Assembly (NCBI RefSeq): GCF_036507355.1
Contig: NZ_AP027877.1
Length of the DNA stretch: 64,000 nt
Origin: Escherichia coli
GTDB lineage: Bacteria > Pseudomonadota > Gammaproteobacteria > Enterobacterales > Enterobacteriaceae
Strand: one strand, 5' to 3'
Made by a program: the position numbers and the translations under genes. A model generated the notes under the pieces. It did no database searches. It worked only from the letters and a program-made list of their open reading frames with translations, and was not told the origin of the DNA. Shown in pieces: positions 454 to 18,323 of the stretch (the first letter of the stretch is position 1; each line of letters starts with the position of its first letter).

Positions 454-918
454 TCATCGTTGCCATACGCGCCATCGGTCCCCTTTCTGAAAAGAATCGA
501 GGTGTCTGGCAAGCCAGATATCAGGGCATGAATTGCCGGTAACGCAGCGGGCAGTAAACCGGTGGCAGTTAAAGTCGAGCAGGCTGTAGGGATAGCGCTG
601 ACCCACTGCCGCCTTTGCCCGTTCAGCGGCCTGCGCACAACCCTGAGGCGTCAAATCCATACAATCGGTATACACCGAGATAGCGGAGTTCCAGCCATCG
701 AGCCGGTCAAGAAACCCTTTAGCCTTACTTTTGATAACGGTTCCATCGCCATCAAGATGAACAATATCGCCGTTACCCACATAGATACCGCTGTGTGCGG
801 CAAGGCCAAAAAGCAGTTCGCACTGCACGATACCACCGTAAGCCGGTTCATCGACGCAGGAGAGAATGCAGTTATCGATAAATGAATCCACGAAGTTCAG
901 CAGCAGAAGCCGGTACAT
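454..918 (-). CDS. Permuted NlpC/P60 (LRAT/YiiX-like) Cys-His hydrolase-family protein
   Basis: ORF 454-1089; likely start at internal Met (MYRLLLL...). His-box HSGIYVGNGDIVH precedes Cys-box NCHRF, the LRAT-type permuted order. Confidence 0.45.
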   Translation of the reverse strand: MYRLLLLNFVDSFIDNCILSCVDEPAYGGIVQCELLFGLAAHSGIYVGNGDIVHLDGDGTVIKSKAKGFLDRLDGWNSAISVYTDCMDLTPQGCAQAAERAKAAVGQRYPYSLLDFNCHRFTARCVTGNSCPDIWLARHLDSFQKGDRWRVWQR

Positions 919-976
919 AACATTCAGTTCCTTACTACGGGGGAGAGGGGGGATGCGGGGGAAACGTAGTGAACAC

Positions 977-1405
977 TCAGCTTTCCCACAACGTACGGAC
1001 CGTGAAAACCCCCATATCGTGGTAAGCCATAAAGTTACTTTCCCATAGCGACCAGAACTCACGGGCGTCGACATGAGAGATATCGCCACAACGGGAAAGC
1101 CACGTGTATTGTTGCGTCCAGCTCACATCGACATCTTTTTCAAGCTCAGGCCATGGATGCCCTGCATAATGAAAATCGGTGACGTAATCGAGCTGCCAGT
1201 CTTCTCCGGCAGGGATGAGGCGTATTTCGACCGGATGCCAGCCGCCCTTTTCCGGTGAGTATTCAGGGTCACGGAAGTTAATGGTTAATCCGGTGATGGG
1301 GTGACGATGAGGCGGTTTTTGCGCGAGGATATCCAGAAGCAGTTGGGTGAACGACCGGGAGAGAGGCAGCACATAGCCGCCCTGCAATATTACGGGTGAT
1401 GACAT
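977..1405 (-). CDS. Hypothetical protein (142 aa)
   Basis: Six-frame ORF, same strand and tight spacing with neighbouring ORFs; no family recognised. Confidence 0.4.
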   Translation of the reverse strand: MSSPVILQGGYVLPLSRSFTQLLLDILAQKPPHRHPITGLTINFRDPEYSPEKGGWHPVEIRLIPAGEDWQLDYVTDFHYAGHPWPELEKDVDVSWTQQYTWLSRCGDISHVDAREFWSLWESNFMAYHDMGVFTVRTLWES

Positions 1406-1451
1406 AGTGAATTTCCTGATTTTTGGTTAACAGAACACAGAAAAAGCGGGG

Positions 1452-1883
1452 TTAGTCCTGGCTGAGCGTAGCAAGCTGCGTCATACGATGCTGCCAGTCG
1501 GCATAGCAGCGGTGCATAAAGAGTCTGCTGCTGTCCGCTTCGATAAGGCAGATATCCGGACTTCTGAGTACGGCGGCAAGAAACCCGGCGTTGTTGGTGC
1601 TGCCCTGACCAAATAGTGGTCGAAACACACGCGACGGAAAGCTGTCCTGCTGCTGTTCAAGAATGGCGTGAATCGCATCAAGCGTTATCCATTCACGGGA
1701 GAACAGGCCTCCTTCGCCATTGGCGGTTAAGCGCAGGGCGAGGCTTCCGGTTTCATCCTCCTTACCCAGCTCATACGTCAGCAGTCCCTTACTGTGTGGA
1801 CTGATTTTCTCGGCTTCACCCCTGTAGAACACGGTATAGCTTTCGGTGACGGCGGCTTCGGTAGCGACTTTTTTCTTACTCAT
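1452..1883 (-). CDS. Hypothetical protein (143 aa)
   Basis: Six-frame ORF in apparent leftward operon; no family recognised. Confidence 0.4.
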   Translation of the reverse strand: MSKKKVATEAAVTESYTVFYRGEAEKISPHSKGLLTYELGKEDETGSLALRLTANGEGGLFSREWITLDAIHAILEQQQDSFPSRVFRPLFGQGSTNNAGFLAAVLRSPDICLIEADSSRLFMHRCYADWQHRMTQLATLSQD

Positions 1884-2247
1884 GGTTCAGCGCCTCAATC
1901 AGGTTCTGGAGTTGAGTGATAACGGTCGTGTCCGGGAACACCAGATAGATACCCTGTCCGTTATCGCAGACGATACCGAGCAGGAGATACCAGCCATCAT
2001 CAAGTGCGGTGACGTATTCCGGGTTAGCCAGTGCCACTGCCAGCAGCGGGTCTTCGGGGAGGGTGTCATCGTGGTTGAGATGCCAGAGCAGGGTTCTTGT
2101 TTCTTTCCAGAAAGCAGTAAACAGGTCGATATCATCTACGGGGCCAAGAATTTCATTGCTGAGGGCTTCCAGCGCGGAGGCTGGCAGGTTGAGAAGGGAA
2201 ATACTGGTAGGGGTTGTGAGTTTGTACATAGTTATCTCCATCATCAA
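1876..2247 (-). CDS. Hypothetical protein (117-123 aa)
   Basis: ORF with GGAG Shine-Dalgarno upstream of the internal Met (MYKLTTP...), so the start is probably 2229; stop overlaps next gene start by 8 nt. Confidence 0.4.
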   Translation of the reverse strand: MMMEITMYKLTTPTSISLLNLPASALEALSNEILGPVDDIDLFTAFWKETRTLLWHLNHDDTLPEDPLLAVALANPEYVTALDDGWYLLLGIVCDNGQGIYLVFPDTTVITQLQNLIEALNHE

Positions 2248-2457
2248 TCGAATATCATGGAAATAATATGTGTCCGTTTTAAGGGCTATTACAGGCTTGG
2301 TGTGTTGGATTTGTTTTTCTTATTACGAACAAATAGCGACTGGCTCAGGCCGGGATTGTTTAGAGACAGATTCAGCATAGATTCGTAAAAATAAAAACTA
2401 TTAGCGCGAGATCCTCTGTTTATGCCGTGACAGTTAACTGATAGGAGGCTTGTTGGT

Positions 2458-3161
2458 TGGATTTGCCCCTATATTTCCAGACACCTGTTATCACTTAACC
2501 CATTACTGGCCCGCTGCCGCAGATATTCCCGTGGCGAGCGATAACCCAGCGCACTATGCGGATGCCATTCGTTATAATGCTCGAACGCCTCTGCAAGGTT
2601 CTTTGCTGCCGTTAACCCGTCTGGTTTGGGCATGATACTTATGTAGTCACGCTTTATCGTTTTCACGAAGCTCTCTGCTATTCCGTTACTCTCCGGACTC
2701 CGCACTGCCGTGTTCTTCGGTTCAAGTCCCAACATCCTGGCGAACTGACGTGTTTCATTCGCCCGGTAGCATGAACCATTATCCGTCAGCCACTCCACTG
2801 GAGACGCCGGAAGCTCGCTGCCAAAGCGGCGTTCCACTGCTCCCAGCATGACGTCCTGTACTGTTTCACTGTCGAAGCCACCCGTTGTGACCCCCCAGTG
2901 CAGTGCCTCACGGTCACAGCAGTCCAACGCGAACGTGACCCGCAGTTTTTCTCCGTTATCACAGCGGAACTCAAACCCGTCAGAGCACCATCGCTGATTA
3001 CTTTCTTTCACAGCCACTCTGCCGGTATGTGCCCGTTTCGATGGCGGTACAGCGGGTTTTCGCTCAAGCAACAGCGCATTCTGGCGCATGATCCGGTAAA
3101 CACGTTTGGCATTGATCGCAGGCATACCATCAAGTTCTGTTTGTCTGCGAAGCAGCGCCCA
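2458..3161 (-). mobile_element. IS2 remnant: right inverted repeat plus 3' part of orfB (IS3-family transposase), 5' portion deleted
   Basis: ORF 2469-3125 matches the IS2 OrfB C-terminal region as I remember it (...[36 protein letters not shown]...[12 protein letters not shown]); terminus TGGATTTGCCCCTATATTTCCAGACA at 2458. Similarity stops abruptly near 3161. Confidence 0.8.
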
Positions 3162-3636
3162 TAACGCAGCCCTTGCCTTACTGGTGTTTCTGGCCCTGAC
3201 CGGATTACGCCTTGGTGAAACCCGTTATCTTCTGCTTGAGGATATCGACTGGTCCCGTCAGACCATCACTTTGCGAGAAACTAAAAACGGTAAGCTTCGC
3301 TGTGTGCCAGTGGGTGATAAGGCCTTTGTTCTTCTGACTGAGCAGCGCCAGCACTTGGGCGATAAAGGCTGGGTTTTCCCCGGCTATAACACAACTAATC
3401 CGGTTGCAGAACCACGCCGTCTGCAAAAGCGTATATGTGAGAAAGCCGGTATTTCACCATTCACTATTCATGAGATGCGACACACTTTCGCCACGAAACT
3501 TATCGAGAGTGGGGCTGACATCCATACCATCAAAGATTTACTGGGCCACAGCACCATAAAGGTTACCGAGAGGTACCTACATGGCAGCCCGGTGCGCTAC
3601 CACGAGGCCATTAACAAGGCGATGGATACGTTCTAG
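3160..3636 (+). pseudogene. Tyrosine recombinase (phage-type integrase) C-terminal catalytic fragment, N-terminus missing
   Basis: ORF 3106-3636 carries integrase catalytic motifs (HEMRHTFAT, LLGHSTIKVTERYLH) but only ~160 aa; directly abuts the truncated IS2 segment. Confidence 0.7.
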
Positions 3637-3717
3637 GTATAAGCATAACTATCCACAGGCAGGTTAGTTCCTTTTTCCCTGCACGCGATTTATCTGTTTT
3701 TAATTGAGGATTAGATA

Positions 3718-5643
3718 ATGAATAACATAGTGACACCCGCCCCCTTAACGACAATGGCGCGTTTTGCCTGTTCGAAACTGAATGGATTTCTGGCTCGTCG
3801 GGCTTTGCATCAGGCAAATGCGAAGAAAATCCTTAAAAAGGCAATTGCAATCAGCATTGCGGTCGATGAGATTTCGGCAAAAGGGGGGCGTGATGGTCTG
3901 CCTGATGGGTTTGTTAACTCACCGCATGGGCTTTTTTATGATGATGGCAAAAAAGTGTTTCAGCTCAGTTCTACTGCTATTGTTCCCGTCAGCAGGCATT
4001 ATTCAGCGTGTAAGAAGCGCAATATGGGTGTCGAACTCATGACCATTAATCATGCGGGTCAGTATGTCTGCGCTGAAATTTCACTGAGCAACGTTACGCT
4101 AAACCCCGATAGTGTGATTGGCTCCCTGACAGCGCAAGGTTTCGGTATCCCTATGACGGTAAAGACGAAAGAGCTGTTGGCGCAGTTCTTACAGACATGT
4201 ATGAAGCAAGCGCTGGCTCTCCCTACCTACCTTGTCGCTGATTCAATGGGATTTGTACCCGGCAAGAAAGCGTTCTTACATGGCAATATGCCTTTAGCAC
4301 AGAACATCCCTGGGTTTGATTACCTTATTTCCGTTCAGCGTACACCCGCAGGGATCGTTGAGTCCGGCACGCTGGATGCGTGGAAGGCTCTGGTGAAAAA
4401 GAATGTCCATGGATGGCCACAGATTTTTGCATTGTGTTCTGCCTTTGCGTCCATGCTGGTTGCATTGTGTAAAATGGATGTGGCGATGTTTCACTTCTAT
4501 GGTGGGTCAACGACTGGAAAAACGATCCTTCTCCAGCTTGCGATGTCAGTTCATGGTCATGGCGGGGAGCCGGGAAGTGGAAAGCTTGTCAATGTTCTTC
4601 GCTGGAATACCACGGTGAATGCGCTAGAGAAGCGACTGAGTCAGTTCTCAGGCCTGCTGGCATGTGTGGATGAGTTGGGGGCTTATAAACAAAAGGACTT
4701 CGCTTCGCTCCTGTACAACATTACCGCCGGTCAGGGTAAAAGCAGAATGGACAAGAATCTGGATATACGTGAGCTTTATACATGGGAAATGTTAATTCTC
4801 TCCGCAGGTGAAATGTCCATTTCTGAGAAGCTAGCGACGGAAAAAGAACATCTTCAGGGTGGACAGGAACATCGCGCCATTAGCCTCAATGTTTTGCCTG
4901 AAGATGCCCGTAAAGACGGCGAATCATCAGAAAGGGTACGCTGCCGCGCTGATAGTCTGAAAAATGGCCTGAGTGAAGTTTATGGTACGGCGGGTAAGGA
5001 ATTTATTGCTAATTTGCTGGCACTGGATAATGACGATGATGAACCGCAGTCCTGGGATGAAATGTGCCTGTCTATTCAGGGGGCAGTAGAAGAACAACGT
5101 GACAGTCTTGTCGGTGAGCTGCAGGAAGAAGGTTATGCACTTAGTGACATTCAGCTGCGTGCATTAAAACGATTTTCCCTATGTTTGTGTGCCGGAATCC
5201 TGGCAGCATCATGGAATATCCTTCCGTTCAGTGAAGATATTATTAAGGGTGCGGTAATGAGCGCGGCTCGTCGCTGGCTGGATGATAAACCAAACCAGTA
5301 TAGCCCACTAAAGCAGGTGCTTACGGCTATCCAGCACGATCTTCTCACAACCAGAGCGTCCCATTTAATGCCGTTGCTTGATGAGGATGCGCATACCCCA
5401 TACAACCACTGGGGGTACACGGATAAGAACGATAACATGATGATTTTCGCTCCTGTTTTTGAAGGCTGGTGTGCCAAAAAAGGCATTAAACCTGCTGATG
5501 TGGCGAAAGCATTGGCAAAAAAAAATCACCTCAAACCAGAAAGTCAGGGCCACTACAAAAAACGTCCTCAGAAGGGAGTTCAGCAACCTTTTTATCTGGT
5601 TATGAATACATTTCTTGGCTGTAACATTGGCGCTGACTTTTAA
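3718..5643 (+). CDS. DUF927-like protein with P-loop NTPase (primase/helicase-like replication protein of integrative elements)
   Basis: 641-aa ORF with Walker A GGSTTGKT and Walker B-like CVDELG; architecture recalled from P4-like/integrative-element replication proteins. Confidence 0.55.
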   Translation: MNNIVTPAPLTTMARFACSKLNGFLARRALHQANAKKILKKAIAISIAVDEISAKGGRDGLPDGFVNSPHGLFYDDGKKVFQLSSTAIVPVSRHYSACKKRNMGVELMTINHAGQYVCAEISLSNVTLNPDSVIGSLTAQGFGIPMTVKTKELLAQFLQTCMKQALALPTYLVADSMGFVPGKKAFLHGNMPLAQNIPGFDYLISVQRTPAGIVESGTLDAWKALVKKNVHGWPQIFALCSAFASMLVALCKMDVAMFHFYGGSTTGKTILLQLAMSVHGHGGEPGSGKLVNVLRWNTTVNALEKRLSQFSGLLACVDELGAYKQKDFASLLYNITAGQGKSRMDKNLDIRELYTWEMLILSAGEMSISEKLATEKEHLQGGQEHRAISLNVLPEDARKDGESSERVRCRADSLKNGLSEVYGTAGKEFIANLLALDNDDDEPQSWDEMCLSIQGAVEEQRDSLVGELQEEGYALSDIQLRALKRFSLCLCAGILAASWNILPFSEDIIKGAVMSAARRWLDDKPNQYSPLKQVLTAIQHDLLTTRASHLMPLLDEDAHTPYNHWGYTDKNDNMMIFAPVFEGWCAKKGIKPADVAKALAKKNHLKPESQGHYKKRPQKGVQQPFYLVMNTFLGCNIGADF

Positions 5644-5818
5644 GAGGGAGCAGGAATAGAGATTAAATAATATAAGGTTAATTAAGATTTTCCGTGCCGT
5701 AATTTAAATTGTAGGATCCGGAAATATAATCTGAATGCTCAGAGGGCAGGTTGTGCACAAAATGGGCATTTAATTTTTTAATTATTCAACATATATATCA
5801 ACTAAAGGTAATTTTAAA

Positions 5819-6238
5819 ATGTATCATACAACTCCTGATGAATGTCCTGAGTTTCCACAGGCGATTAGTTCCGAAAATGTGGGGAAAGTAAAATTTACAC
5901 GTTACAGGCTCTTAATGACACAGGCTCAATGCAATTTTTATGGTATTCAACGAGAGATTTTTGATGGCGAATTTCCTGCTCTTAGAGCAATTGTTAAAGG
6001 TGATTTTCAAATCGAATTTTTTGTGAAATATAAGTGTAGAGGGCTGGATTACTATGGTTCTCTTGGTGATTGGCCTCATATGACAATTAGTGATGCAAAA
6101 GAAATCGCAGAGGGAGTTTTCAATAACTGCGATGACTCCCACCGTAATAACTGGGAGGGTGAAAATGATAGCGATAGTATCGAAGAAGACATGATGAGCT
6201 ATTTTGAAAATGGTATTCCATTCGGCAATAATTCATAG
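5819..6238 (+). CDS. Hypothetical small acidic protein in very AT-rich segment
   Basis: 139-aa ORF with no recognisable family; surrounding 5640-6300 is conspicuously AT-rich. Confidence 0.35.
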   Translation: MYHTTPDECPEFPQAISSENVGKVKFTRYRLLMTQAQCNFYGIQREIFDGEFPALRAIVKGDFQIEFFVKYKCRGLDYYGSLGDWPHMTISDAKEIAEGVFNNCDDSHRNNWEGENDSDSIEEDMMSYFENGIPFGNNS

Positions 6239-6335
6239 GTTTATACTGGATTTTCACGTCAGTAACGAAATCGAAATTCGCACATGAAAACATCTATATC
6301 TATGAGGTAGTTACTTATCGATAAACGACTGTGAA

Positions 6336-6364
6336 AGCAGAGGGGCGGCCCCTCTGCTTTTTTT
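6336..6364 (+). terminator. Rho-independent terminator hairpin between convergent genes
   Basis: GCAGAGGGGCGGCCCCTCTGC stem followed by a T-run. Confidence 0.5.
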
Positions 6365-6365
6365 G

Positions 6366-7553
6366 CTACAACGTATCGGGTAACTGAGCGCGGATACGTT
6401 CCGCCAGTAACTGACTGGTGTTCTGTAAGCGCTGAGGATGAAGATGTGCATAACGCTGTGAAGACTGACTGCTACGGTGCCCCAGTTGAGCCTGAACGTC
6501 ATATAGCGTACCGCCGTAGGACACGATGAGGGCGGCAACCGAATGGCGGCAGGTATGGATACACACTTCCTTGTCGAAAATTCCCGCCCGACGCACGATA
6601 CGCTGAAAGGCTTTAACCGGGTTACTCAGCGGCATTCCCTGTTTTTTACCAATAAACAACCACGGATTTCCCCGCTGCGTTGGCAGCGTTCTGATTACGT
6701 CCATCGCCAGTGAGTTAAGGTGAACAATCCGTCCATAGCCATTCTTGGTTTCAGGGAGCCACAGGGTGCGTTTAACCGGGTCAACATGCTCCCACTTTGC
6801 CAGACGCAGCTCATCGCGGCGAAGGCCGGTCAATAACAGCAGTTTGACATAGCGGGCAGCTACAGGGCTGGTATCGTTATCGGCGGAGAGAAAAATACGA
6901 CGAATTTCGTCCTCGGTAAAATAACGCTGTCGGGCGTTGTTCTCCCTGAGTAGCTGTACCACCCTTGCCGGATGAACAGAGGTCATGCTTTGCCTTCCGG
7001 CCCATGTAAAGACGGCTTTAATGAGTACGATGACACGGTTACAGGTAGCCGCTGACAGGGAAGTACTTAACGTCTGCTGAAGGCGCAGAATGCTCGCTGG
7101 TGTGATATCGCTCAGCAGCCTCTGACCAATGGCGGGACGGATATGATCGCGGTAGCGCTGAACATCCTTTCCCCAACTGCGTTTAGCGGATTTTGCCCAT
7201 GGCAGATAATGCTGATTAAAGAGTTCATCGAACGTCAGCTCCATTCTCTTGTTTTCACGCTCCTGCTTAGGGTCAGTGCCGGTGGCAAGGGAACGTTTGT
7301 GTTCTATGGCAATCTGACGGGCAAGATTGACGTCCACTTCAGGCCAGTGACCAATGGCGATGGCGCGTTTTCGTCCATGATAGAGGTAGCGGAGCAAAAA
7401 CTTTTTACGACCTTCTTTTCTGCTGACCAGACACTTGAGGCCGGAAATCTCGGTGTCGCTGTATTCGGCATCGGTGCTGCGTGCATCTGATGTGTTAGGG
7501 GGCAGTGATTTAATGAGCTGATTAGTAAAACGGAAGCGTTTGGGAGTGGACAT
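6366..7553 (-). CDS. int: P4-type tyrosine integrase
   Basis: 395-aa ORF with arm-binding-like N-terminus and catalytic R..HxxR..Y region (HTCRHSVAALIV, LGHRSSQSSQRYAHL); lies 7.3 kb from tRNA-Phe and is transcribed away from it. Confidence 0.85.
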   Translation of the reverse strand: MSTPKRFRFTNQLIKSLPPNTSDARSTDAEYSDTEISGLKCLVSRKEGRKKFLLRYLYHGRKRAIAIGHWPEVDVNLARQIAIEHKRSLATGTDPKQERENKRMELTFDELFNQHYLPWAKSAKRSWGKDVQRYRDHIRPAIGQRLLSDITPASILRLQQTLSTSLSAATCNRVIVLIKAVFTWAGRQSMTSVHPARVVQLLRENNARQRYFTEDEIRRIFLSADNDTSPVAARYVKLLLLTGLRRDELRLAKWEHVDPVKRTLWLPETKNGYGRIVHLNSLAMDVIRTLPTQRGNPWLFIGKKQGMPLSNPVKAFQRIVRRAGIFDKEVCIHTCRHSVAALIVSYGGTLYDVQAQLGHRSSQSSQRYAHLHPQRLQNTSQLLAERIRAQLPDTL

Positions 7554-7985
7554 ATAACCTCCTGTGACTGGTGTAAAGAACGTCAGGGTTGACCCATCCC
7601 CGGCACGGCGTTGTTAATGGCTAAGTTGATTTTCTGGCATGGCGAAGGGAATGCTGGTGCCACATGGTATGAATTAAGACGGGAAATGCAGAAAGAGCAG
7701 GCTTTACGGTCTGATTCTGGTCTTAAGGGAAAAGATTGCCGTTGGGGAAGAGTTCACAGAAATAATATGTGTTTCAGTCTAGAACAATTACATGCCATGA
7801 GGATCAAGAGAGTTGCCCGTATATGGCAGGTATCAAAGTTGGTTATGGATGTTGCCAAAACATAGTGGGGATGGATGTTGAAGTGCTAACTTGATGTTTT
7901 TAATGGGAAAGTGTAAATTGCGTGATGCGTTGCACTCATGTAGATAACACCATTGAAAGTATCAAATTGTTTGAAAAAAAATCAT

Positions 7986-8056
7986 CTTTGATCAACCTTA
8001 AGATTGTTTCTAGATGGTAAAATCTTCATATGGGAAAGAGCTCACTGGTAAGGAAG
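7986..8056 (+). promoter_or_regulatory. Putative promoter and RBS for the four-gene operon
   Basis: AT-rich divergent intergenic region; TTGATC ... TGGTAAAAT (extended -10-like) and AGGAAG 10 nt before the ATG at 8067. By eye only. Confidence 0.25.
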
Positions 8057-8066
8057 ACAAATCCTG

Positions 8067-9119
8067 ATGGGGATCATCGTACGAATTCTTAAAGCTAACC
8101 ATGGCGATTGCATTTTGGTGAGCCATGAAAGCGGTTCAGGCACTCTCAACTTGCTCATTGATGGGGGACCTGCGACGACATTCAGGTATGGCATTAGGCA
8201 GCGCTATTCTGGAGCATTGAGTAACGCTCTCGATGATCTGAAAGGAAAGGGGCAAAACATTGATCTGGCTATCCTGACCCACATTGATGATGATCACATA
8301 AATGGTTTTATCAAGGCATTCGAAAGTCCAAACTATCTGCGTCAGCTGGTTAAATCGATCTGGTTCAATTCTTCGAGGTTAATCACACATCATTTTAATG
8401 TGCCTGAAATTTGTGAAAATAATATTTTCTTGCAGGAAGTTTCCCCTGAAACTAGCGTTAAACAGGGGCAAGAACTTGAGGCATTACTTGATGAAATCGG
8501 ATGTGTGCGAGCACCGCTCATTATGGCAGGGCAAATCTACAAAGTAGGCCCGATTACTTTAACAGCACTTTCACCTGAACGAAGACAACTCGAACAGCTT
8601 TTGCATAAGTGGCCAACGGAAGTAAGTTCAGCTGACACTTCTTCATATGAGAATGATTATCACCGTTCATTGGACGAAATTTGGGCAGATGATAGATTTG
8701 AATCTGACTCATCTATTTATAATGGAAGCTCAATTGCATTTTTACTGGAAACAGATGACAAAAAAATGCTTTTTTTAGGAGACGCCAATGACCAAGTTGT
8801 TACAAAAAATTTAAGAGCATTGGGCTATAGCGAAACAAACAAGTTGAAGCTGGATCTGGTTAAAGTTTCGCATCATGGTAGTCAATACAACACAAGCAAC
8901 GAATTTCTTTCAATACTAGATTCTCCATGCTTTGTTATTTCAACCAATGGTTCGAAGCATGGTCTTCCTAATAAAAGGACTATTGCAAGGATCTTAAAGG
9001 AAACAGATGGTGATATTTATTTTAATTACAGCAATGTAATTACTCCGCTGCTTTTAGCGCATGAAGCTGAGAGCTATTCTTCTCGTCTAAAAGTGCTAGG
9101 TGATGAGATTAAATTCTAA
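8067..9119 (+). CDS. Metallo-beta-lactamase-fold hydrolase (putative nuclease)
   Basis: 350-aa ORF with MBL motifs in canonical order: LIDGG, THIDDDH (8278-8298), FLGDAN, VSHHGS. Confidence 0.7.
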   Translation: MGIIVRILKANHGDCILVSHESGSGTLNLLIDGGPATTFRYGIRQRYSGALSNALDDLKGKGQNIDLAILTHIDDDHINGFIKAFESPNYLRQLVKSIWFNSSRLITHHFNVPEICENNIFLQEVSPETSVKQGQELEALLDEIGCVRAPLIMAGQIYKVGPITLTALSPERRQLEQLLHKWPTEVSSADTSSYENDYHRSLDEIWADDRFESDSSIYNGSSIAFLLETDDKKMLFLGDANDQVVTKNLRALGYSETNKLKLDLVKVSHHGSQYNTSNEFLSILDSPCFVISTNGSKHGLPNKRTIARILKETDGDIYFNYSNVITPLLLAHEAESYSSRLKVLGDEIKF

Positions 9120-10419
9120 CATGACAGTTTACGAAATAATGCAGTCCCACTGCGTCATGGTTAATGGTGGCAGTGGTGTGCTAGTTAATGCAATGACACT
9201 GGATTACACATATGTACTGACTGCATACCATGTTATTCGTGACACTCTCGATAATATCGAAGTTACCGATCACAGTGGCAATAAACTTACAGTATTAGCT
9301 GTGCTCCTATATCCAGATATTAAATATTTGAACGAATCCCATAATGATTTCGCAATTTTAAAAATTGAATATCAACCAGAAGTTGCACAAAGTTGTTTTA
9401 CTGCTTCGACGTTGCCTCCTCGTGCTGAGCTTACATTAGTAGGATTTCCAAACACTGAAAGAAGGAGTTCGGATCCTATAAAATATTATGATGGACATAT
9501 GACTAGCGTGGTCGATGAGCTTGTCATTTTCACTGTTGATGGTGTACCAGGCTTAGCCACGATAAAGGGGATGTCAGGTGGAGGTGTATATCACATAGTT
9601 GGTAGAAATACATTTCTTGTTGGTGTTGAGTTTAGGATGGATGGCACTGAAGAGGAACAACAGTTTGGCCGAGTGCAATGCCATAGCTTAGCAAAGTTTG
9701 ATGAAATAATAAGAGCATACGATAGCGCACCGATGATTCCTGCCCATTTGGAATGCTTTTCTCGAATACAAGACAAAATATTTAAATTTAATGTTATTGA
9801 TCAAAACAATGTTCGTAATCTTAAAGATGCGTTAGAAGCCCTTTCCAGATCACTTATAGCTAGTGGGATGTCTCCGCCTTACAAAATCATGGGGCAATAT
9901 GGATTACAGCTTTTGATGGATCCCAAAACTCCTAATGAGCTCAGTAATAAAGAGTTATGGATTTCTTATTTTGAATTTTTAGTTATTTGCTCTGTGATAG
10001 ATAATGTTGGAATTGTGGATGATGCATATATAAAAAGCTTGGAGCGAAAGCGGCGGCTATTATATACCAGTAATGGTGCGAACTGGATTAGCCATTTGGA
10101 AGAACTACTCAAAACGGCACGAAAACTTTTAGATAAGGATGGCACTTTAATCGTTGCATCACCTGATGCTGCTGCAAGTGTCTTGCCTCCGAACTTTCGA
10201 CTTAAAAACGTAATAAGTAATATAGCGGTAGTGCCAAACCAGGGGCCGTTTGCTATCGATGAAGTTGAAAGTTCTATTTATACAAGCTTCAAATTAACTC
10301 ATCTGGAGGGACTCCGCAAAAGCTGCGTAATAGACCGTGAGGATGAATATCTAGTAGTTCCAGCAGGTGTACCACAATTGCAGTTATTTAAGGAGAAGCT
10401 TAATGAAATTATTAAGTAA
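9100..10419 (+). CDS. Trypsin-like serine protease domain fused to a ~250-aa C-terminal domain of unknown function
   Basis: His (LTAYHVI), Asp (NDFAILK), Ser (GMSGGGVY) in S1 order in the first ~170 aa. Start ambiguous (GTG 9100, ATG 9103 or ATG 9121); overlaps or abuts the upstream stop. Confidence 0.7.
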   Translation: MMRLNSNMTVYEIMQSHCVMVNGGSGVLVNAMTLDYTYVLTAYHVIRDTLDNIEVTDHSGNKLTVLAVLLYPDIKYLNESHNDFAILKIEYQPEVAQSCFTASTLPPRAELTLVGFPNTERRSSDPIKYYDGHMTSVVDELVIFTVDGVPGLATIKGMSGGGVYHIVGRNTFLVGVEFRMDGTEEEQQFGRVQCHSLAKFDEIIRAYDSAPMIPAHLECFSRIQDKIFKFNVIDQNNVRNLKDALEALSRSLIASGMSPPYKIMGQYGLQLLMDPKTPNELSNKELWISYFEFLVICSVIDNVGIVDDAYIKSLERKRRLLYTSNGANWISHLEELLKTARKLLDKDGTLIVASPDAAASVLPPNFRLKNVISNIAVVPNQGPFAIDEVESSIYTSFKLTHLEGLRKSCVIDREDEYLVVPAGVPQLQLFKEKLNEIIK

Positions 10420-10942
10420 GGAAGTCGATCTGAGTATTTTAAGTGTGAAATATGATAAAATCAGATTTCACATGTATTGCTCAGATGATCCACTTTCATT
10501 TATTTCCTGTATAGTATGTGTATGTGAGACTTCAGCCGATATTTTGGAGAATTGGCGTACTATTCAAAATGTGGTTTCTGTTCACTATCAACCATCGGGT
10601 GACTTAGCATCTTGGAATATGTATATTGTTTTTTTTACAACTGATGTTTTTCCTGTATGGGAAAAATATGAAATAGAAAACAATAAGTTTGCTGCTCGCA
10701 AGATAATTATTGATAAATTCTCAGGTGCCCCCACCTCTGCTCAGTTAGTTACTGAGTTGCAAAAATATTTGTTGGGAACAGACTTAAGACTTGATCCGCG
10801 AGTCAATGAGTCAAAAGAGGCTTTATTGTCTTTAGATAAATACGTTCGTGGTGCTCCATTAGATTCAAAGAATGAGTCCAGAGAAATCCGCGCCTCCATG
10901 GTCAATGAAATAATTAAATTTTTGAACAAAAATGAAAATTAA
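10403..10942 (+). CDS. Small protein of unknown function (possible adaptor component)
   Basis: 179-aa ORF from ATG 10403 with AGGAG upstream; overlaps previous gene end by 17 nt and next gene start by 11 nt. Confidence 0.55.
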   Translation: MKLLSKEVDLSILSVKYDKIRFHMYCSDDPLSFISCIVCVCETSADILENWRTIQNVVSVHYQPSGDLASWNMYIVFFTTDVFPVWEKYEIENNKFAARKIIIDKFSGAPTSAQLVTELQKYLLGTDLRLDPRVNESKEALLSLDKYVRGAPLDSKNESREIRASMVNEIIKFLNKNEN

Positions 10943-13900
10943 AAAAGTTGAGATTGAAGCATTTCGTGCCTACAAATCTAGGTCAGATGGCACGTTTGAT
11001 TTCACGAATGATGGAGATGTTGCTGCAAATTTTGTTGCGATCTATGCTCCGAATGGTTTTGGTAAAAGCTCCTTCTACGATGCTGTTGAATGGGCAATTA
11101 CCAATCACATGGCAAGACTTGGCGGAGAATATAATAAAGCTAATTATGAGAACGCTGCCAAAATCACCAAGGACGATAATGTTGGGCAAGAAATTTTACG
11201 TAATAAATATGTAGATAAAAATATACGCACAAAGGTAGTGGTATCAACCACTCGACCACTCCCTTTTGAGCGTAAACTACCCAAAGTCAGATCTAATGGG
11301 CGTGATTTGCGATTCGGAGATAATAGTCAAAGAGAAAATGATTTTTTCCGACAAGTGATTCTAAGTCAAGATGAAATTGATAGATTTCTCCGAGAAGCCA
11401 AACCGCAAGAGCGCTATACGAAATTTATGGAAAGTTTCGGTGGAGATATTGAAATTGCCCGTAAAGAGCTGTCAGTACTTATAAATGATAATAAGATTGA
11501 GTTGAATAATCTCAATAAAAAGAGAGAATCTATTCTTGAACAATTAAAACAACCAATAGATTCTTCAATTTTCCAAAAATTCAATTCTATTGCTGTTGAA
11601 TTGAATAAGTTGGGTGAAAATATTCAATTACCTGACGAGAGTTTTTCATCTCAAGATGAATATGCTCTTAATGTTAGTCTTATATCGCGACGCCATGAAC
11701 TCGACTCATCACGTTTAACGAACAATCGAACGGTAGAAGCACTGGAAGACAGGCTTCTAAAAATATCTGAAACTGAATTACATGTCCGCAGTTTAGCAGA
11801 ACAGAATTTACATCTTGCTAAATTAGTGAAAGGAGTGGCCGACGCTGATAGGTACCAATCACTTTTGGATTCATACGAAAAATGTGCAGAAGATCAGAAA
11901 ACCACACACATGCATATGACTCGTATTATAGAAGTGATTGATTGCCTTGATGATTTTCTAAAAATTGAGTCTCATCTTCTTGAGTTGTCTACTAGCCAAA
12001 AGATAATTTCTGAAGAACGCACCAAGATCTGTGCGCAGCTTGCAGGTTTTGAAACAACAATTAATCAATTGAATAAGGAGCTTAAGGCTGTAGATGATAG
12101 GGTCGCTATACTTAGGAAGACCGTTGATAACGCCGGGCAAGTATATTTGGAGCTCGCAAATAACCGGGCTCGGGTAAGTAACCTAACACAGCAAATATCA
12201 AAAAAAGAAGTTTCTATTAAGATAGATAAATCTAGGCTTGGGGAGTTGAATCGTGAGTTGACTAGACTTTCTGAACTCAATATTAATGCCACCTCATTAT
12301 CAAACGGAAATCTAGGGACCTTACTTTTAGAACCTACGAAAGTTGAGCAGCTGACGAGATGTTACGCCGAGTTTGATGTGATTGAATCACAAATTCAAGC
12401 TGTGCATGTTACTCAAAAAGCATTATCTGAACAGATGGAATTGCATGAACGACTGATTGCCATTGGAATTGACTATCTTAGTGTACGACCATCCAGTATC
12501 TGTCCTTTATGTACAGCTCCTCACCCATCTGCGGACGGTTTACTGGATAAAATTAAAGGGCGGAACCTTTTATCAGAATTAAGTGAGGAGAATTCTAAAC
12601 AGCTTTTATTTTTCTCTACACGTCAGAAAGAAATTCTTCAATCAATTCAGGATATTACTCAGTGCGCAATTGATTCAAAGGCTCAGTTGATTATTAACTT
12701 AAACAAGGAATTGAGTGAGACTGACGAGAGACTTACTCTTGCAGGTAGAGATATATATTCAATAGAAGCAGAGTTAAAGACTCTTGAGAAACGGACCACA
12801 GAGTTAGAAAGTTTAGTTTGGGCACTTTCACATGATGAACTGGTATCCCGAATTGAAAAAGAAATTGGTGAGCTTTCAATCAAAAGTTCAAAGCTCCTAG
12901 AAGGAAAAGCATTAATTACCCCTCAGGTTGAAATGCTTAATGAATCACTCAAAGAAAAAGACTCTGCGCAGCAAAAAATAGCTTCGGAGTTGGAAGGTAT
13001 CTTTAGCGGAAATATCTACATTACAGTTTATAAATACTTAAATGAAAATGCGATTTCGTCTTCATCCCTCAAAAGTCATACTGAAAAAAGGAAACTAGAG
13101 ATTGAGGCTGAAATAATTAAGTGTAAAACCACTATTGAGTTTTTGACTGAACAATGTGCTGTTTTACAGCAAAAAATGTTAAGTGATGGTATGTGGGTGG
13201 ATTTTGTTCAGTTGAAGCTGCAAAAAGAATCTTTAGAAATAAGTGTTGCCCGCTCTCAATCAGTAATTAACACGTTTTATGAGAGTTTATCTAACCTTAT
13301 AATTATCCGTCCTGAGTACAGTCTTGAAAAAGTCAAAGAGCTCATAGCTGCGAAAGTTCAGGATTGCCATCTTCGTACGAAAGAATTTGATAGGCTCTCA
13401 AATAATATTAATTTACTCATAGAACTTATGAGTTCGTTTAAGCCATATATTAAACATACAGCTCTTCAGAAAGATTTAATGGCTGAAGAGATGTTAATAA
13501 AACAGCGTGAACGGGTCGACACTACTTTAACCGCAGAAAGAGATGCAATAGTGGATAGCCTGAAACTTCTTATCAATAATTTCTTCTATGAAGATCTTAT
13601 TAATTCTATTTATAAGAAGATAGATCCGCATCCTGCCTTTAAAAAAGTAGAGTTTAAGGCTGACTTTGATTCTGATAAGCCAGGCCTAAATATTGTGGTT
13701 AGTGATGAGGTTGGAGAGCAAATCTCGCCAATACTTTATTTCAGTGCGGCTCAAACGAATATTCTAAGCTTAAGTGTCTTTTTAGCTAGTGCACTTCATG
13801 CGAAAGACGATGAGGGTAATCCCATCAATGTTGTTATGATTGATGACCCAATTCAGTCAATGGATTCGATTAATATACTCTCTACGATAGATCTTTTAAG

Positions 13901-14063
13901 AAGTATATGTGTTCAATTTGATAAACAAATTATTATTTCAACGCATGATGAAAACTTCTTTGCCTTACTCCAGCGCAAAATCCCTGCCCAAATTTTTGGA
14001 TCTAAATTCTTGCAATTGGAAAAGTTTGGTGTAGTCGTCCCGGTGCAACCCTTTGTGAACTAA
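10932..14063 (+). CDS. SbcC/Rad50-like ABC ATPase with long coiled coil and central CxxC zinc hook
   Basis: 1043 aa: Walker A NGFGKSS (Lys codon 11064-11066), Q-loop ILSQDE, CPLC at 12501-12512 (residues 524-527, mid-protein), signature-like FSAAQ, Walker B VVMIDDP, H-loop STHDE. The middle ~600 aa are heptad-rich and Leu/Glu/Lys-rich. Confidence 0.8.
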   Translation: MKIKKVEIEAFRAYKSRSDGTFDFTNDGDVAANFVAIYAPNGFGKSSFYDAVEWAITNHMARLGGEYNKANYENAAKITKDDNVGQEILRNKYVDKNIRTKVVVSTTRPLPFERKLPKVRSNGRDLRFGDNSQRENDFFRQVILSQDEIDRFLREAKPQERYTKFMESFGGDIEIARKELSVLINDNKIELNNLNKKRESILEQLKQPIDSSIFQKFNSIAVELNKLGENIQLPDESFSSQDEYALNVSLISRRHELDSSRLTNNRTVEALEDRLLKISETELHVRSLAEQNLHLAKLVKGVADADRYQSLLDSYEKCAEDQKTTHMHMTRIIEVIDCLDDFLKIESHLLELSTSQKIISEERTKICAQLAGFETTINQLNKELKAVDDRVAILRKTVDNAGQVYLELANNRARVSNLTQQISKKEVSIKIDKSRLGELNRELTRLSELNINATSLSNGNLGTLLLEPTKVEQLTRCYAEFDVIESQIQAVHVTQKALSEQMELHERLIAIGIDYLSVRPSSICPLCTAPHPSADGLLDKIKGRNLLSELSEENSKQLLFFSTRQKEILQSIQDITQCAIDSKAQLIINLNKELSETDERLTLAGRDIYSIEAELKTLEKRTTELESLVWALSHDELVSRIEKEIGELSIKSSKLLEGKALITPQVEMLNESLKEKDSAQQKIASELEGIFSGNIYITVYKYLNENAISSSSLKSHTEKRKLEIEAEIIKCKTTIEFLTEQCAVLQQKMLSDGMWVDFVQLKLQKESLEISVARSQSVINTFYESLSNLIIIRPEYSLEKVKELIAAKVQDCHLRTKEFDRLSNNINLLIELMSSFKPYIKHTALQKDLMAEEMLIKQRERVDTTLTAERDAIVDSLKLLINNFFYEDLINSIYKKIDPHPAFKKVEFKADFDSDKPGLNIVVSDEVGEQISPILYFSAAQTNILSLSVFLASALHAKDDEGNPINVVMIDDPIQSMDSINILSTIDLLRSICVQFDKQIIISTHDENFFALLQRKIPAQIFGSKFLQLEKFGVVVPVQPFVN

Positions 14064-14559
14064 AGTGCTTGCACTGCCTCTAAACAATCTGCATGCACAT
14101 CTCGTTGACTAAATTTGAAACGAGATGTGCATTGCTCGTTATAAAAATAAGGCATGTTCTAATTATCCAATCCCCATCAGTATAAGTGGGTGGATAGATA
14201 TATTTGGCCCCTTTAACAGATATGTTAATTTCCACTTTTCGCTTACAGTGGACCTGCAGCTCAGTAACTTACTCACTTTGTGCTAGGAACGGGCATTGCT
14301 AATAGTCAGAGTGTATGACCTGCTCATCGTTGATTAAGGACAGCGCTGTACTGGTTCGTTGAACCCACGGCTCACAACGGACACTCAGGTTATTATTCCA
14401 ATACGTTTAGCTCAAGTAGTATTACTACGGATAAATCATTTTATGATGGCGTGGAGAACGGGGGGATTCTGAAAATGGTAAGAAGTGAAAGGGCAAGAAG
14501 AGCTTGTTGCAGGTGGACGGACTGGTGAAGATTCCCATCTGGAGGGTGTATGCTGCCAA

Positions 14560-14730
14560 GTTTCCCCGCTTGCTATTGGGGATTTCCCCACCTTATTCCC
14601 CGCGACAAAATCATGTTAAGACCAGCGGATTAAGGAGAAATGATAATTCCCCCGTTTTCCCCGTATTTTCTACTTCATTATGAATGATCTGAGAGAAAGG
14701 AACCGTAGAGGACCGTAGAAAGACCGTAGC
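14560..14730. repeat. Clustered short direct repeats (five TTCCCC motifs at 14561-14663; three ACCGTAG repeats at 14702-14729, ~10-11 bp phasing)
   Basis: Read directly from the sequence in the 840-bp non-coding stretch between the operon and tRNA-Phe. Confidence 0.4.
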
Positions 14731-14899
14731 AGTGAGGTTAGGAAAAGGTACATCAGAGGATGTTGAGGTGTCTAAAAGTAACGAACATCTGCGAAAATGG
14801 CGAGAAATCCAGCAAACAAATAACGTGTTGCAACGACCAGAAATCTACCGTAGCCAAGAAAGGAAAAAGCCCCGCTTTGCAGCGAGGCCTTATGAATAT

Positions 14900-14975
14900 T
14901 GGTGCCCGGACTCGGAATCGAACCAAGGACACGGGGATTTTCAATCCCCTGCTCTACCGACTGAGCTATCCGGGC
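14900..14975 (-). tRNA. pheV: tRNA-Phe (GAA anticodon)
   Basis: Reverse complement reads GCCCGGATAGCTCAGTCGGTAGAGCAGGGGATTGAAAATCCCCGTGTCCTTGGTTCGATTCCGAGTCCGGGCACCA, the E. coli tRNA-Phe as I remember it; position next to yqgA-speC indicates pheV. Confidence 0.95.
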
Positions 14976-15080
14976 AACGGGGCGCATTAAACCTGATTCG
15001 CCTCGTCTCGTCAATCAAATTTCTTCAATTTACTGCAGACTGCACAATCTATCATCACTTTGCCGCTATTGCACGCATTG

Positions 15081-15790
15081 TCAGGCAAACCAGGCGGTCC
15101 AGGTGGCGGAAAGCGGCATTGCCAGAAGGAGTGCTGGAAGCATGTTGACCACCGGGAACATTTTAATGCCACAGATGCGTAATCCGGTTGCCAGCAGCAA
15201 TAAACCGCCTACGGCGCTGAAGTCTGCCATCATCGACGGTGTGGTCAGCGGTAATATCAGCGCGGCAGCCCACGCCAGCGTTAACTGGATGATCAGTAAT
15301 GGGATACTAATTACCGACACCGCAATACCCAGCGAGCAGGCGAAGATCATCGCCGTAAAGAAATCAAGAAATGACTTGGCGATTAAAATACTCGGATCGC
15401 CGGTCATCCCTTCGTTCATCGCCCCGAAGATCCCGGTGCCGCTGGCGCAAAACAGGACAATAATCGCGACATAATTCTGAATAAAAGATTCATGCGCTGG
15501 CTTCTTACGTGAGTGACGAAACAGATTTTGTGCTTTGGCGACCGCTGTATTGACGCCTTTCTCCAGCAGACAAATTTCGCCGATTAATGCTCCGAGTAAG
15601 GTTGCTAAAACCATCGCCGGAAGGTTGGCGCATTTCACCACCAGTAAAATACCAATCCCCAGCGATGCCAGACCAAAAATAGATGTCATGGAGACGCGCG
15701 GATACGTTCCGGTAAGCGTTGGCTGAGCAGTGCGCCGAGAACGCCACCCAGTAATACTGCACTAGCGTTGATAAAAGGGCCGATGACCAC
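15081..15790 (-). pseudogene. yqgA: DUF554 inner-membrane protein, apparently frameshifted near codon 33
   Basis: 202-aa ORF (15081-15689). The 101 nt upstream (15690-15790, GTG start) encode a hydrophobic N-terminus in another frame ending in a stop. 33+202 = 235 aa, the length I recall for YqgA. Confidence 0.55.
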
Positions 15791-16187: not shown

Positions 16188-18323
16188 ATGAAATCAATGA
16201 ATATTGCCGCCAGTAGTGAACTGGTATCCCGACTTTCTACTCATCGCCGCGTGGTGGCGTTGGGAGATACTGATTTTACGGACGTCGCGGCAGTCGTCAT
16301 TACCGCTGCGGATAGTCGCAGTGGCATTCTTACGTTGCTTAAGCGCACCGGTTTTCATCTACCGGTGTTTTTGTATTCCGAACATGCTGTTGAATTACCT
16401 GCGGGCGTTACGGCGGTAATCAACGGCAACGAGCAGCATTGGCTGGAGCTGGAATCCGCAGCCTGTCAGTATGAAGAGAATTTGCTGCCACCGTTTTATG
16501 ACACGCTGACACAGTACGTTGAGATGGGCAACAGCACCTTTGCTTGCCCTGGGCATCAACATGGTGCGTTTTTTAAAAAGCATCCTGCCGGACGCCATTT
16601 TTACGATTTCTTTGGTAAGAACGTCTTTCGCGCCGATATGTGTAATGCTGACGTAAAATTGGGCGATCTGCTTATTCATGAAGGATCGGCGAAAGATGCG
16701 CAGAAATTCGCAGCCAAAGTCTTTCATGCCGATAAAACCTATTTTGTGCTGAACGGCACATCGGCAGCGAATAAAGTGGTGACGAATGCGCTGTTAACGC
16801 GTGGCGATCTGGTGCTCTTCGACCGTAACAACCATAAGTCGAATCATCACGGCGCGTTGATTCAGGCGGGGGCGACGCCGGTCTATCTGGAAGCTTCACG
16901 TAACCCGTTTGGTTTCATTGGCGGTATTGATGCGCACTGTTTTAATGAAGAGTATCTGCGCCAGCAAATTCGCGACGTTGCGCCAGAAAAAGCCGACCTG
17001 CCGCGCCCGTTTCGCCTGGCGATTATTCAGCTGGGAACCTATGACGGCACTGTCTATAACGCCCGTCAGGTGATCGATACCATTGGGCATCTGTGTGATT
17101 ACATTCTGTTTGATTCCGCGTGGGTCGGTTATGAACAATTTATCCCGATGATGGCAGATAGCTCGCCGCTGCTGTTAGAACTTAACGAAAACGATCCGGG
17201 GATTTTTGTGACCCAGTCGGTGCACAAACAGCAGGCTGGACTCTCACAGACGTCGCAGATCCATAAAAAAGATAACCATATCCGCGGACAGGCGCGTTTT
17301 TGCCCGCATAAGCGGTTGAATAACGCCTTTATGCTCCATGCTTCTACCAGCCCTTTCTATCCGCTGTTTGCTGCACTGGATGTTAACGCCAAAATTCATG
17401 AAGGGGAGAGTGGGCGTCGGCTGTGGGCTGAGTGCGTTGAGTTGGGTATTGAGTCGCGCAAGGCTATTCTTGCGCGCTGTAAGCTGTTCCGCCCGTTTAT
17501 CCCGCCCGTTGTTGATGGCAAATTGTGGCAGGATTATCCGACATCAGTGTTAGCCAGCGACCGCCGTTTTTTCAGTTTTGAGCCGGGGGCGAAGTGGCAC
17601 GGCTTTGAAGGATATGCCGCGGATCAGTATTTTGTTGATCCGTGCAAGCTGTTACTCACTACACCAGGTATCGATGCCGAAACCGGCGAATATAGCGACT
17701 TTGGCGTTCCGGCGACGATTCTGGCGCACTATCTGCGTGAGAACGGCATTGTGCCGGAGAAGTGCGATCTCAACTCCATTCTGTTCTTATTAACTCCGGC
17801 GGAAAGCCACGAGAAGCTGGCACAACTGGTGGCGATGCTGGCGCAATTTGAACAGCATATTGAGGATGACTCGCCGCTGGTTGAGGTGTTGCCGAGCGTT
17901 TATAACAAATATCCGGTGCGCTATCGCGACTACACCCTGCGCCAGTTGTGTCAGGAGATGCACGATCTGTATGTCAGTTTCGACGTCAAAGACCTACAAA
18001 AAGCGATGTTCCGCCAGCAGAGTTTCCCGTCAGTGGTGATGAACCCCCAGGATGCGCATAGCGCTTATATTCGCGGTGACGTGGAGTTGGTGCGGATTCG
18101 TGATGCCGAAGGGCGAATTGCGGCAGAAGGGGCGTTGCCTTATCCACCTGGCGTGCTTTGCGTGGTACCCGGGGAAGTCTGGGGTGGGGCGGTTCAACGT
18201 TATTTCCTTGCGCTGGAAGAAGGGGTGAATTTGTTGCCGGGATTTTCGCCGGAGCTGCAAGGTGTTTATAGCGAAACCGATGCGGATGGCATGAAACGGT
18301 TGTACGGTTATGTGTTGAAGTAA
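16188..18323 (+). CDS. speC: Ornithine decarboxylase, constitutive
   Basis: 711 aa from MKSMNIAASSELVSRL...; protein sequence recognised. Confidence 0.95.
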   Translation: MKSMNIAASSELVSRLSTHRRVVALGDTDFTDVAAVVITAADSRSGILTLLKRTGFHLPVFLYSEHAVELPAGVTAVINGNEQHWLELESAACQYEENLLPPFYDTLTQYVEMGNSTFACPGHQHGAFFKKHPAGRHFYDFFGKNVFRADMCNADVKLGDLLIHEGSAKDAQKFAAKVFHADKTYFVLNGTSAANKVVTNALLTRGDLVLFDRNNHKSNHHGALIQAGATPVYLEASRNPFGFIGGIDAHCFNEEYLRQQIRDVAPEKADLPRPFRLAIIQLGTYDGTVYNARQVIDTIGHLCDYILFDSAWVGYEQFIPMMADSSPLLLELNENDPGIFVTQSVHKQQAGLSQTSQIHKKDNHIRGQARFCPHKRLNNAFMLHASTSPFYPLFAALDVNAKIHEGESGRRLWAECVELGIESRKAILARCKLFRPFIPPVVDGKLWQDYPTSVLASDRRFFSFEPGAKWHGFEGYAADQYFVDPCKLLLTTPGIDAETGEYSDFGVPATILAHYLRENGIVPEKCDLNSILFLLTPAESHEKLAQLVAMLAQFEQHIEDDSPLVEVLPSVYNKYPVRYRDYTLRQLCQEMHDLYVSFDVKDLQKAMFRQQSFPSVVMNPQDAHSAYIRGDVELVRIRDAEGRIAAEGALPYPPGVLCVVPGEVWGGAVQRYFLALEEGVNLLPGFSPELQGVYSETDADGMKRLYGYVLK

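Follow-up and report, generated by a model that had tools for sequence, protein, structure and literature searches.

Why does an integrase gene in Escherichia coli lie more than 7 kb from the tRNA gene at which its island ends, with an operon of four genes filling the space between them? We examined this question in a 64-kb window of the E. coli sequence NZ_AP027877.1, to which all coordinates refer unless another sequence is named. The window begins inside the island, and a first-pass annotation of it had described 7.3 kb of cargo between the 3' end of a tRNA-Phe gene and a P4-type integrase, here called Int1. These features were all found where that annotation had placed them. Counting from the tRNA, the order is 836 bp without a conserved open reading frame (ORF) (14064-14899), an operon of four ORFs (8067-14063), a 513-bp intergenic stretch and the integrase gene int1, which is transcribed away from the tRNA and the attachment (att) site and whose start codon is 7,346 bp from the tRNA 3' end. 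We consider it likely that this arrangement represents an island with a cargo slot between att and int, that the slot holds a Lamassu defence system in this genome, and that its contents are swapped between islands as a module.

A cargo slot between the integrase and tRNA-Phe

The boundaries within the interval were set by pairwise blastn and MAFFT alignments across 6 to 25 variants. They divide the 7.3 kb into an int-proximal flank of ~250 bp, a cargo module of ~6.56 kb and a tRNA-proximal arm of ~530 bp (Table 1). The 7.3 kb first described as cargo therefore holds as the length of the interval (7,346 bp), while the true cargo comes to ~6.56 kb. Likewise, the 840 bp that had been taken as a single non-coding region is not one unit, as ~14064-14367 (~300 bp) is the tail of the cargo and ~14368-14899 is the conserved att arm. 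The int-proximal flank ends after CAATTACATGCCATRAGG in all variants and is 83-95% identical among them, against up to 100% for int. Within the arm, the 262 bp nearest to the tRNA are highly conserved and the distal half occurs as two divergent allelic types.

One discrete position between the arm and the upstream region of int is a cargo slot with variable contents. We identified at least nine states of this slot in E. coli and at least four further states in other genera, all on conserved flanks, which bears out the earlier proposal that the interval between int and tRNA is a variable cargo hotspot. In the empty state (locus L014) the flanks are contiguous and int is 760 bp from the tRNA, so that int is not directly beside att in either the empty or the filled form. 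The commonest occupant is a protein of 177 or 195 aa (L002, 9548-10081; also L008, L011 and others) that had no match in Pfam, PADLOC or other families. Other occupants include DUF2971 (the PADLOC candidate PDC-S31) together with an Mrr-like endonuclease; an NA37 nucleoid-associated gene with hypothetical genes and the insertion sequence (IS) IS1; a LysR regulator with an alcohol dehydrogenase and the same endonuclease, at pheU; and, in E. coli, a 472-aa protein. Two further variants carry insertions, one of IS5 with the Mrr-like endonuclease and one of IS66. At pheU of E. coli AW1.7 the slot gene (L037, 2279-4009) is annotated as 'anti-phage dCTP deaminase', and an experimentally validated dCTP deaminase was cloned from strain AW1.7 (bioRxiv 10.1101/2021.04.26.441389). 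The two may be the same gene; the strain matches, and the accession is absent from the text of that paper.

A scan for the arm motif GGACCGTAGAAAGACCGTAGC, with one genome per species, found it in nine species belonging to Erwinia, Citrobacter, Buttiauxella, Enterobacter, Mixta, Kluyvera and Morganella. In seven of the nine the end of a tRNA-Phe gene lies ~190 bp away, and in the other two the contig ends first. The slot is occupied by a dCTP deaminase and AbiTii in Erwinia, by PD-Lambda-1 in Enterobacter chuandaensis and by a weakly HEC-07-like protein in Kluyvera, with other unknown proteins besides. The orientation of the cargo differs among variants. Lamassu, dCTP deaminase, AbiTii, PD-Lambda-1 and PDC-S31 are the defence genes that we recognised in the slot; since the commonest occupant and several others have no recognised defence function, the term 'defence slot' describes a possible enrichment and not a rule.

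The island and its attachment block

An integrative genomic island of ~30 kb, whose tRNA-proximal end falls in the window, uses tRNA-Phe genes as its targets; it is found at pheV in this genome and at pheU in others. ARAGORN and Rfam identified a single tRNA in the window, tRNA-Phe (GAA), and the flanking genes yqgA, yqgH and speC place it at pheV. The direct repeat of the pheV 3' end that was expected at the distal end of the island lies beyond the window and was located in NZ_CP139337, a genome 99.9% identical to the window across the region. There, an exact 49-bp copy of the 3' part of the tRNA (L007, 32048-32096) is found 30.6 kb from the tRNA. Where the island stands alone, in L026, a copy of the att block with 48 of 49 matching positions abuts the native pheV terminator and yghD. 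The direct repeat of the tRNA 3' part that bounds a tRNA island is thus present in both NZ_CP139337 and L026.

The crossover site of P4 is in the T-loop or at the 3' end of the tRNA. The 49-nt att block of the present island covers the 3' part of the tRNA through the anticodon loop and a further 3 nt of the 5' anticodon stem. Because the block reaches through the anticodon loop, crossover would be expected at or 5' of that loop, and not at the T-loop or the 3' end. The terminator hairpin that the island supplies to the reconstituted tRNA is kept in all island variants compared.

Among 5,426 complete E. coli genomes, 133 contain int1 with its flank, always on the chromosome. Further, E. coli AW1.7 and Erwinia persicina are 96.8% identical over a 3.1-kb stretch that takes in the 5' end of int, the left flank and the dCTP deaminase, against 75% for the adjacent chromosome. 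About 80 more E. coli genomes, STEC O103, O45, O121 and O157 among others, have parts of the arm (14412-14897 or shorter) at 84-97% identity and no match to Int1, which suggests related arms with more distant integrases, or arm remnants.

Two genomes have more than one element at tRNA-Phe. Beyond the 49-bp distal repeat in NZ_CP139337 there is a further integrase, and pheV in that genome therefore holds a tandem array. This other integrase lies 198 bp past the repeat, in the canonical arrangement (L007, 30588-32096; NZ_CP139337, 795587-797095), and the second, different island to which it belongs extends at least 30 kb further, with genes for fimbriae and Ag43, a Phd/Doc pair and IS elements. 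In L020 (CM142788.1, strain GPEC1189; 16834-16882) the arm of the Lamassu island is joined to exactly 49 nt of the tRNA, followed by unrelated DNA that encodes PTS, RhaM-like, aldolase and RhaA-like genes. Here a metabolic island has probably integrated between the Lamassu island and the tRNA, a secondary integration site being the alternative. The island in L026 has shrunk to ~11 kb through a deletion (KE700922.1, 8419-9487) that runs from inside int1, of which 259 aa are left, to a '5-fold beta-flower' gene; the Lamassu cargo and both att ends are kept.

Given that tandem arrays do occur at this locus, and that the G+C content of the cargo module (0.35-0.40) differs from that of the backbone (0.47-0.54), the operon and the att arm might be the remnant of a second island, now without an integrase, lying in tandem between the tRNA and the island that carries int. 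Such a remnant would be expected to leave an att-like copy between operon and int. A search with the 23-nt tRNA 3' end allowing up to 3 mismatches found no second copy in the 64-kb window (0 expected by chance), and local alignment of the 49-nt block to 1-14880 gave only chance-level scores (9.5-10.5 of 49), in agreement with the first inspection of the interval. In addition, nothing separates the two cargo flanks in the empty variant, and in several genera each cargo lies between the same pair of flanks, int-proximal on one side and arm on the other. These observations largely refute a tandem remnant, which we regard as very unlikely, and support the original view that the operon is cargo of the island and not a separate element.

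The cargo in the window is a Lamassu system

The four ORFs of the operon are co-directional and overlapping on the plus strand, and RefSeq names their products, in operon order, 'ComEC/Rec2 family', 'ABC-three component system protein', 'middle component 1' and 'AAA family ATPase'. The first, a protein of the metallo-beta-lactamase (MBL) fold, contains the motifs THIDDDH and SHHGS. The second is a fusion in which Pfam recognises CTD4 (PF20280, 1.3e-59) and Trypsin_2 (1.7e-8), with the serine motif GMSGG (Ser159, counted from the GTG at 9100) and a possible alternative ATG start at 9178. The third product has 179 aa and is assigned to MComp1, the Pfam family (PF20289) matched by the 179-aa product at the same position in related loci, which agrees with LmuC. 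The fourth has Walker A (GFGKSS) and Walker B (VVMIDD) motifs and AAA_23 and SMC_N domains. The LmuB ATPase, the LmuC middle component and an effector with the conserved C-terminal coupling domain, all of them features of Lamassu, are found here, and by these family assignments the cargo is a known nuclease-protease subtype of the Lamassu (ABC-3C) defence system, with predicted anti-phage activity.

The same four genes in the order MBL, protease-LmuA, LmuC and LmuB have been described for Lamassu, also known as DdmABC or ABC-3C (PMC12799240; Millman et al. 2022), and we saw no departure of the window operon from the described MBL-protease subtype. The placement of an MBL nuclease directly upstream of a protease-LmuA fusion was described by Doudna and colleagues, who showed for Hachiman and AVAST, and proposed for Lamassu, that the nuclease starts out as a gated proenzyme and that its partner protease activates it (PMC12799240). 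On the mechanism in the literature, phage DNA would be sensed by LmuB and LmuC, the activated protease-CTD4 protein (LmuA) would cleave the MBL pro-nuclease, and the cleaved nuclease would degrade DNA and so abort the infection.

Of the 5,426 complete E. coli genomes, 3 have the Lamassu cargo in this form. In the sequence collection, 529 blocks list the exact MBL protein, from which 23 contigs were read and 10 places are shown; it is encoded in this same slot at all 10. The contexts comprise pheV, pheU (L019), the second position of a tandem array (L020) and the neighbourhood of the truncated int1 (L026). In the contexts read, the operon was always next to Int1, in the one case truncated, and we did not encounter it at a non-pheV locus without an integrase, an arrangement that would have spoken against the first-pass annotation. 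No near-identical copy of the operon was found on plasmids or phages. The best plasmid relative is a LmuC-LmuB segment with 70% identity over 58% of the query, on a 126-kb plasmid of Acinetobacter ursingii (NZ_CP089040.1, 26279-30278).

Int1, Int2 and the arm repeats

Int1 contains the Pfam domains Arm-DNA-bind_3 (DUF4102; PF13356, 3e-13, residues 10-101), Phage_int_M and Phage_integrase (PF00589, 4.9e-23), and its R-H-R-H-Y set is intact (R245, H333, R336, H359 and Y368). The label 'P4-type' is apt for this domain architecture only: the match to the NCBIfam model PRK09692 reached 28.2 bits against a cut-off of 434, and all integrases in the phage collection are less than 32% identical to Int1, the best being 31%.

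The att arm has a feature that such an arm-binding domain might recognise. The heptamer ACCGTAG occurs 9 times in the window, where 4.1 copies are expected per 64 kb, and 4 of the 9 fall within 152 bp of the arm, at 53, 177, 188 and 198 nt from the tRNA. Their positions are the same in all six variants compared, although the first repeat reads ACCGTAA, with a G-to-A change, in three of them. We suggest that these repeats are candidate arm-type binding sites for the integrase. A related inverted site upstream of int (7704-7711) is likewise at the same position in six of six variants, with an exact match in L003, and is a possible Int operator.

The island has a second integrase, Int2, which raises the possibility that Int1 is a passenger and that Int2, or an enzyme now absent, acts at tRNA-Phe, so that no relation between att and int would exist. 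The distant relationship of Int1 to characterised integrases would be compatible with this. However, Int1 is found together with the arm motif and tRNA-Phe in three of the nine loci from other species, those in which int falls inside the fetched stretch, and in a fourth locus Int1 occurs with the arm motif at a contig end. Further, the arm-binding domain of Int1 would fit the repeated arm motif, and this domain is absent from Int2 in most loci read, with a weak match in L017 only. Int2 is also a C-terminal remnant in the window and truncated in several other genomes that still carry the island. We therefore give the passenger explanation very little weight and continue with Int1 as the probable tRNA-Phe integrase. 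The full length of Int2 is 392 aa, as seen in L001 (NZ_CP139337); in the window, ~2.6 kb of L001 (14572-17161) are absent, and the remnant abuts a 218-aa transposase fragment (2469-3125, minus strand).

Exchange of the cargo module

Comparison of closely related islands suggests how the contents of the slot change. In islands whose int DNA is 99.8-100% identical, identity drops right past the int ATG: the left flank is 83-93% identical, the distal arm 65-84% and the proximal arm 88-97%. Conversely, between the window and L019, at pheU, the Lamassu module and its flanks are 99.6-100% identical and the int genes only 93.6-97.6%, with the half of int nearer to the slot being the more similar. Because divergence sets in so sharply from the ATG of near-identical int genes, the unit of exchange is everything between the int ATG and the tRNA, swapped as a module, probably by recombination. 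One breakpoint falls within int or at its start, and the other at the att core or tRNA.

Two routes would account for this pattern. A related island may integrate in tandem at this tRNA gene, after which the two copies of int would recombine by homology, and the tandem arrays observed at the locus make this an economical route. Plain double-crossover homologous recombination after transfer would fit equally well.

A tyrosine recombinase gene divergent from the cargo, and an entry point that is nearly identical for all cargos, are also what one would expect of integron-like, site-specific capture of cassettes by Int1 or Int2. We looked for direct and inverted 8-mers, attC-like sites, terminal inverted repeats and target duplications at the cargo ends of 7 variants and found none that was consistent. 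Rather, the cargo ends vary in position by 10-30 bp and are nested, with the window, L003 and L006 having extra bases in common; the flanks diverge along with the cargo, and cargo orientation varies. Cassette capture is accordingly a quite improbable explanation, and turnover of the cargo proceeds without a cassette-specific site. Arrival of the operon by its own transposition or by IS-mediated insertion, with the neighbourhood of int incidental, is hardly credible even though IS1, IS5, IS66 and IS3 are found in the interval in some genomes, since neither a transposase nor terminal inverted repeats nor a target duplication flank the window operon, the same slot is used in every context read, and near-identical copies on plasmids or phages were not found.

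Several points weigh against the reading of the locus as an att-int slot that holds Lamassu and is swapped module-wise. The commonest occupant and several others are without recognised defence function, and the LysR-dehydrogenase cargo is metabolic. The role of Int1 as the tRNA-Phe integrase is suggested by co-occurrence and by its arm-binding domain, and Int2 is in the island as well. The distal end of the island lies outside the window and is placed by reference to NZ_CP139337. The proenzyme mechanism has been shown for Hachiman and AVAST and not for Lamassu (PMC12799240). Finally, homologous recombination alone is insufficient to explain the first entry of a new cargo at the same point. With these points taken into account, we still hold the reading to be likely. 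A stronger version, in which the att-int slot is a dedicated device for cargo exchange, with Int1 directing tandem integration at tRNA-Phe and recombination between int genes resolving the array, seems to us unlikely.

Other features of the window

Coordinates of the features discussed here are collected in Table 1.

Table 1. Features of the island end and of the interval between int1 and tRNA-Phe in the 64-kb window
Feature	Coordinates	Strand	Evidence or remark
Int2, C-terminal remnant, 176 aa	3106-3636	+	PHROG 1 integrase 2.6e-38
DUF927 primase/helicase-like backbone protein	3718-5643	+	PHROG 8841 DNA primase/helicase 4e-44; Pfam DUF927
Tyrosine integrase Int1, 395 aa	6366-7553	-	Pfam; PHROG 1 integrase 3.2e-60; catalytic residues
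int-proximal flank, ~250 bp, presumed int promoter/operator	7554-7802		MAFFT, six variants
Inverted arm-type-like site TTACGGTC (reverse complement of GACCGTAa)	7704-7711	-	151 nt upstream of int ATG
Cargo module, ~6.56 kb, low G+C	7803-14367	+	Breakpoints from variant alignments
MBL-fold hydrolase, predicted pro-nuclease, 350 aa	8067-9119	+	PADLOC LmuA PDLC03854 2.2e-128; Avs1a-like 1.4e-59
Trypsin-like protease-ABC-3C CTD4 fusion (LmuA-type effector/adaptor)	9100-10419	+	PADLOC LmuA PDLC03855 6.6e-132
LmuC, ABC-3C middle component 1	10403-10942	+	PADLOC LmuC PDLC03873 2.8e-50, full length
LmuB, SMC/Rad50-like ABC ATPase, 1,043 aa	10932-14063	+	PADLOC LmuB PDLC03865 E=0, 1036 bits, residues 1-1038
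Perfect 14-bp inverted repeat (ATGCACATCTCGTT ... AACGAGATGTGCAT)	14093-14132		30 nt past operon stop; read from sequence
tRNA-proximal att arm, ~530 bp	14368-14899		blastn and MAFFT
Four ACCGTAG repeats	14702, 14712, 14723, 14847 (14702-14853)	+	First three 10-11 bp apart
Terminator hairpin, island-supplied, for the reconstituted tRNA-Phe	14866-14891	-	11 pairs, then T-run (terminator scan)
att identity block, 49 nt	14900-14948		Repeated at distal island end in related genomes
tRNA-Phe (GAA), pheV, integration target, attL side	14900-14975	-	ARAGORN; Rfam RF00005, 68.3 bits

The inverted repeat past the operon stop is probably the terminator of the operon. Two small ORFs were considered as genes and rejected. 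An ORF of 82-84 aa in the flank (7611/7617-7865) straddles the breakpoint and has frame-breaking indels in the variants, and one of 138 aa (14732-15148) runs antisense across the tRNA gene and continues into host sequence. Over 6000-15300, Rfam at E<=1 reported the tRNA and no other structured RNA. When 16 diverse arm sequences were folded on both strands with RNAalifold, base pairs were sparse and the tRNA terminator was the only convincing structure, and promoter scans returned hits no more numerous than in shuffled sequence.

The DUF927 primase/helicase is the only replication-like gene in the annotation of the island, and for the 30-kb island of NZ_CP139337 RefSeq annotates no psu, delta, sid or cos and no packaging genes of phage-inducible chromosomal islands (PICIs). 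Between the DUF927 gene and int1, the window and some other islands have a 139-aa ORF (5819-6238), and at the same junction other islands (L002, 7607-7963) have a 118-aa 'Arm DNA-binding domain' fragment, apparently left over from a further integrase, which suggests that the junction was rearranged in the past.

Comparison with known systems

P4-like satellites have a defence hotspot that is bordered by psu/cos and int, with int separating it from att (Rousset et al. 2022, PMC9122126). The slot described here resembles it in its fixed position beside a tyrosine integrase, its integration at a tRNA gene, its strain-variable defence content in either orientation and its conserved flanks. Unlike the P4 hotspot, it is situated between int and att, in an element of ~30 kb whose annotation lacks psu, delta, sid and cos and whose integrase is less than 32% identical to any integrase in the phage collection. 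Cargo between att and int is described as atypical but is documented in PICIs and, for P2, in 3% of systems (bioRxiv 10.64898/2026.02.27.708500; PMC11364771). The present island is like the immune regions at the 5' end of PICIs (attL-int) and the minor int-att hotspot of P2 in the position of its cargo, and differs from both in that no packaging or capsid-redirecting genes are annotated in it.

The island also resembles the integrase-only tRNA islands of E. coli (Hochhauser, Millman and Sorek 2023, PMC10121019). In the parts of that study available to us, such islands are described as having integrases and no other recognisable mobility genes, and as placing restriction-modification systems, GmrSD and further defence genes at a tRNA gene. 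In those same parts, that work deals with chromosomal hotspots and whole-island occupancy, in contrast to the internal slot and the exchange of modules seen here, neither of which is mentioned; likewise, pheV and yqgA do not appear in its main text as far as we could consult it. The papers retrieved on pheV or pheU with defence concerned pathogenicity islands and not this architecture, and a search for the phrase 'between the integrase' with defence terms returned nothing relevant.

Implications

The architecture is that of a mobile-element defence hotspot in the less usual att-int position, a kind of hotspot that is already known, and the result leaves knowledge of Lamassu and of integrases unchanged. 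It adds an island family that is not a satellite to the few documented cases of att-int cargo, along with sequence evidence that islands near-identical elsewhere exchange the whole segment from att to int as a module. Should the slot after all be a dedicated exchange device, a resident backbone would gain an incoming arm and defence module in one step, which would amount to semi-programmed swapping of immune genes across Enterobacterales, and the location of cargo inside the attP arm might tie its expression to the integrated or excised state of the island.

For the Enterobacterales, the combination of tRNA-Phe, an arm with GGACCGTAGAAAGACCGTAGC, a variable segment and this specific integrase provides a searchable signature for candidate defence genes. 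The uncharacterised occupants to be mined in this way include the dominant 177-aa protein, a 428-aa protein, a family of 472-497 aa and the 671-aa protein in Morganella.

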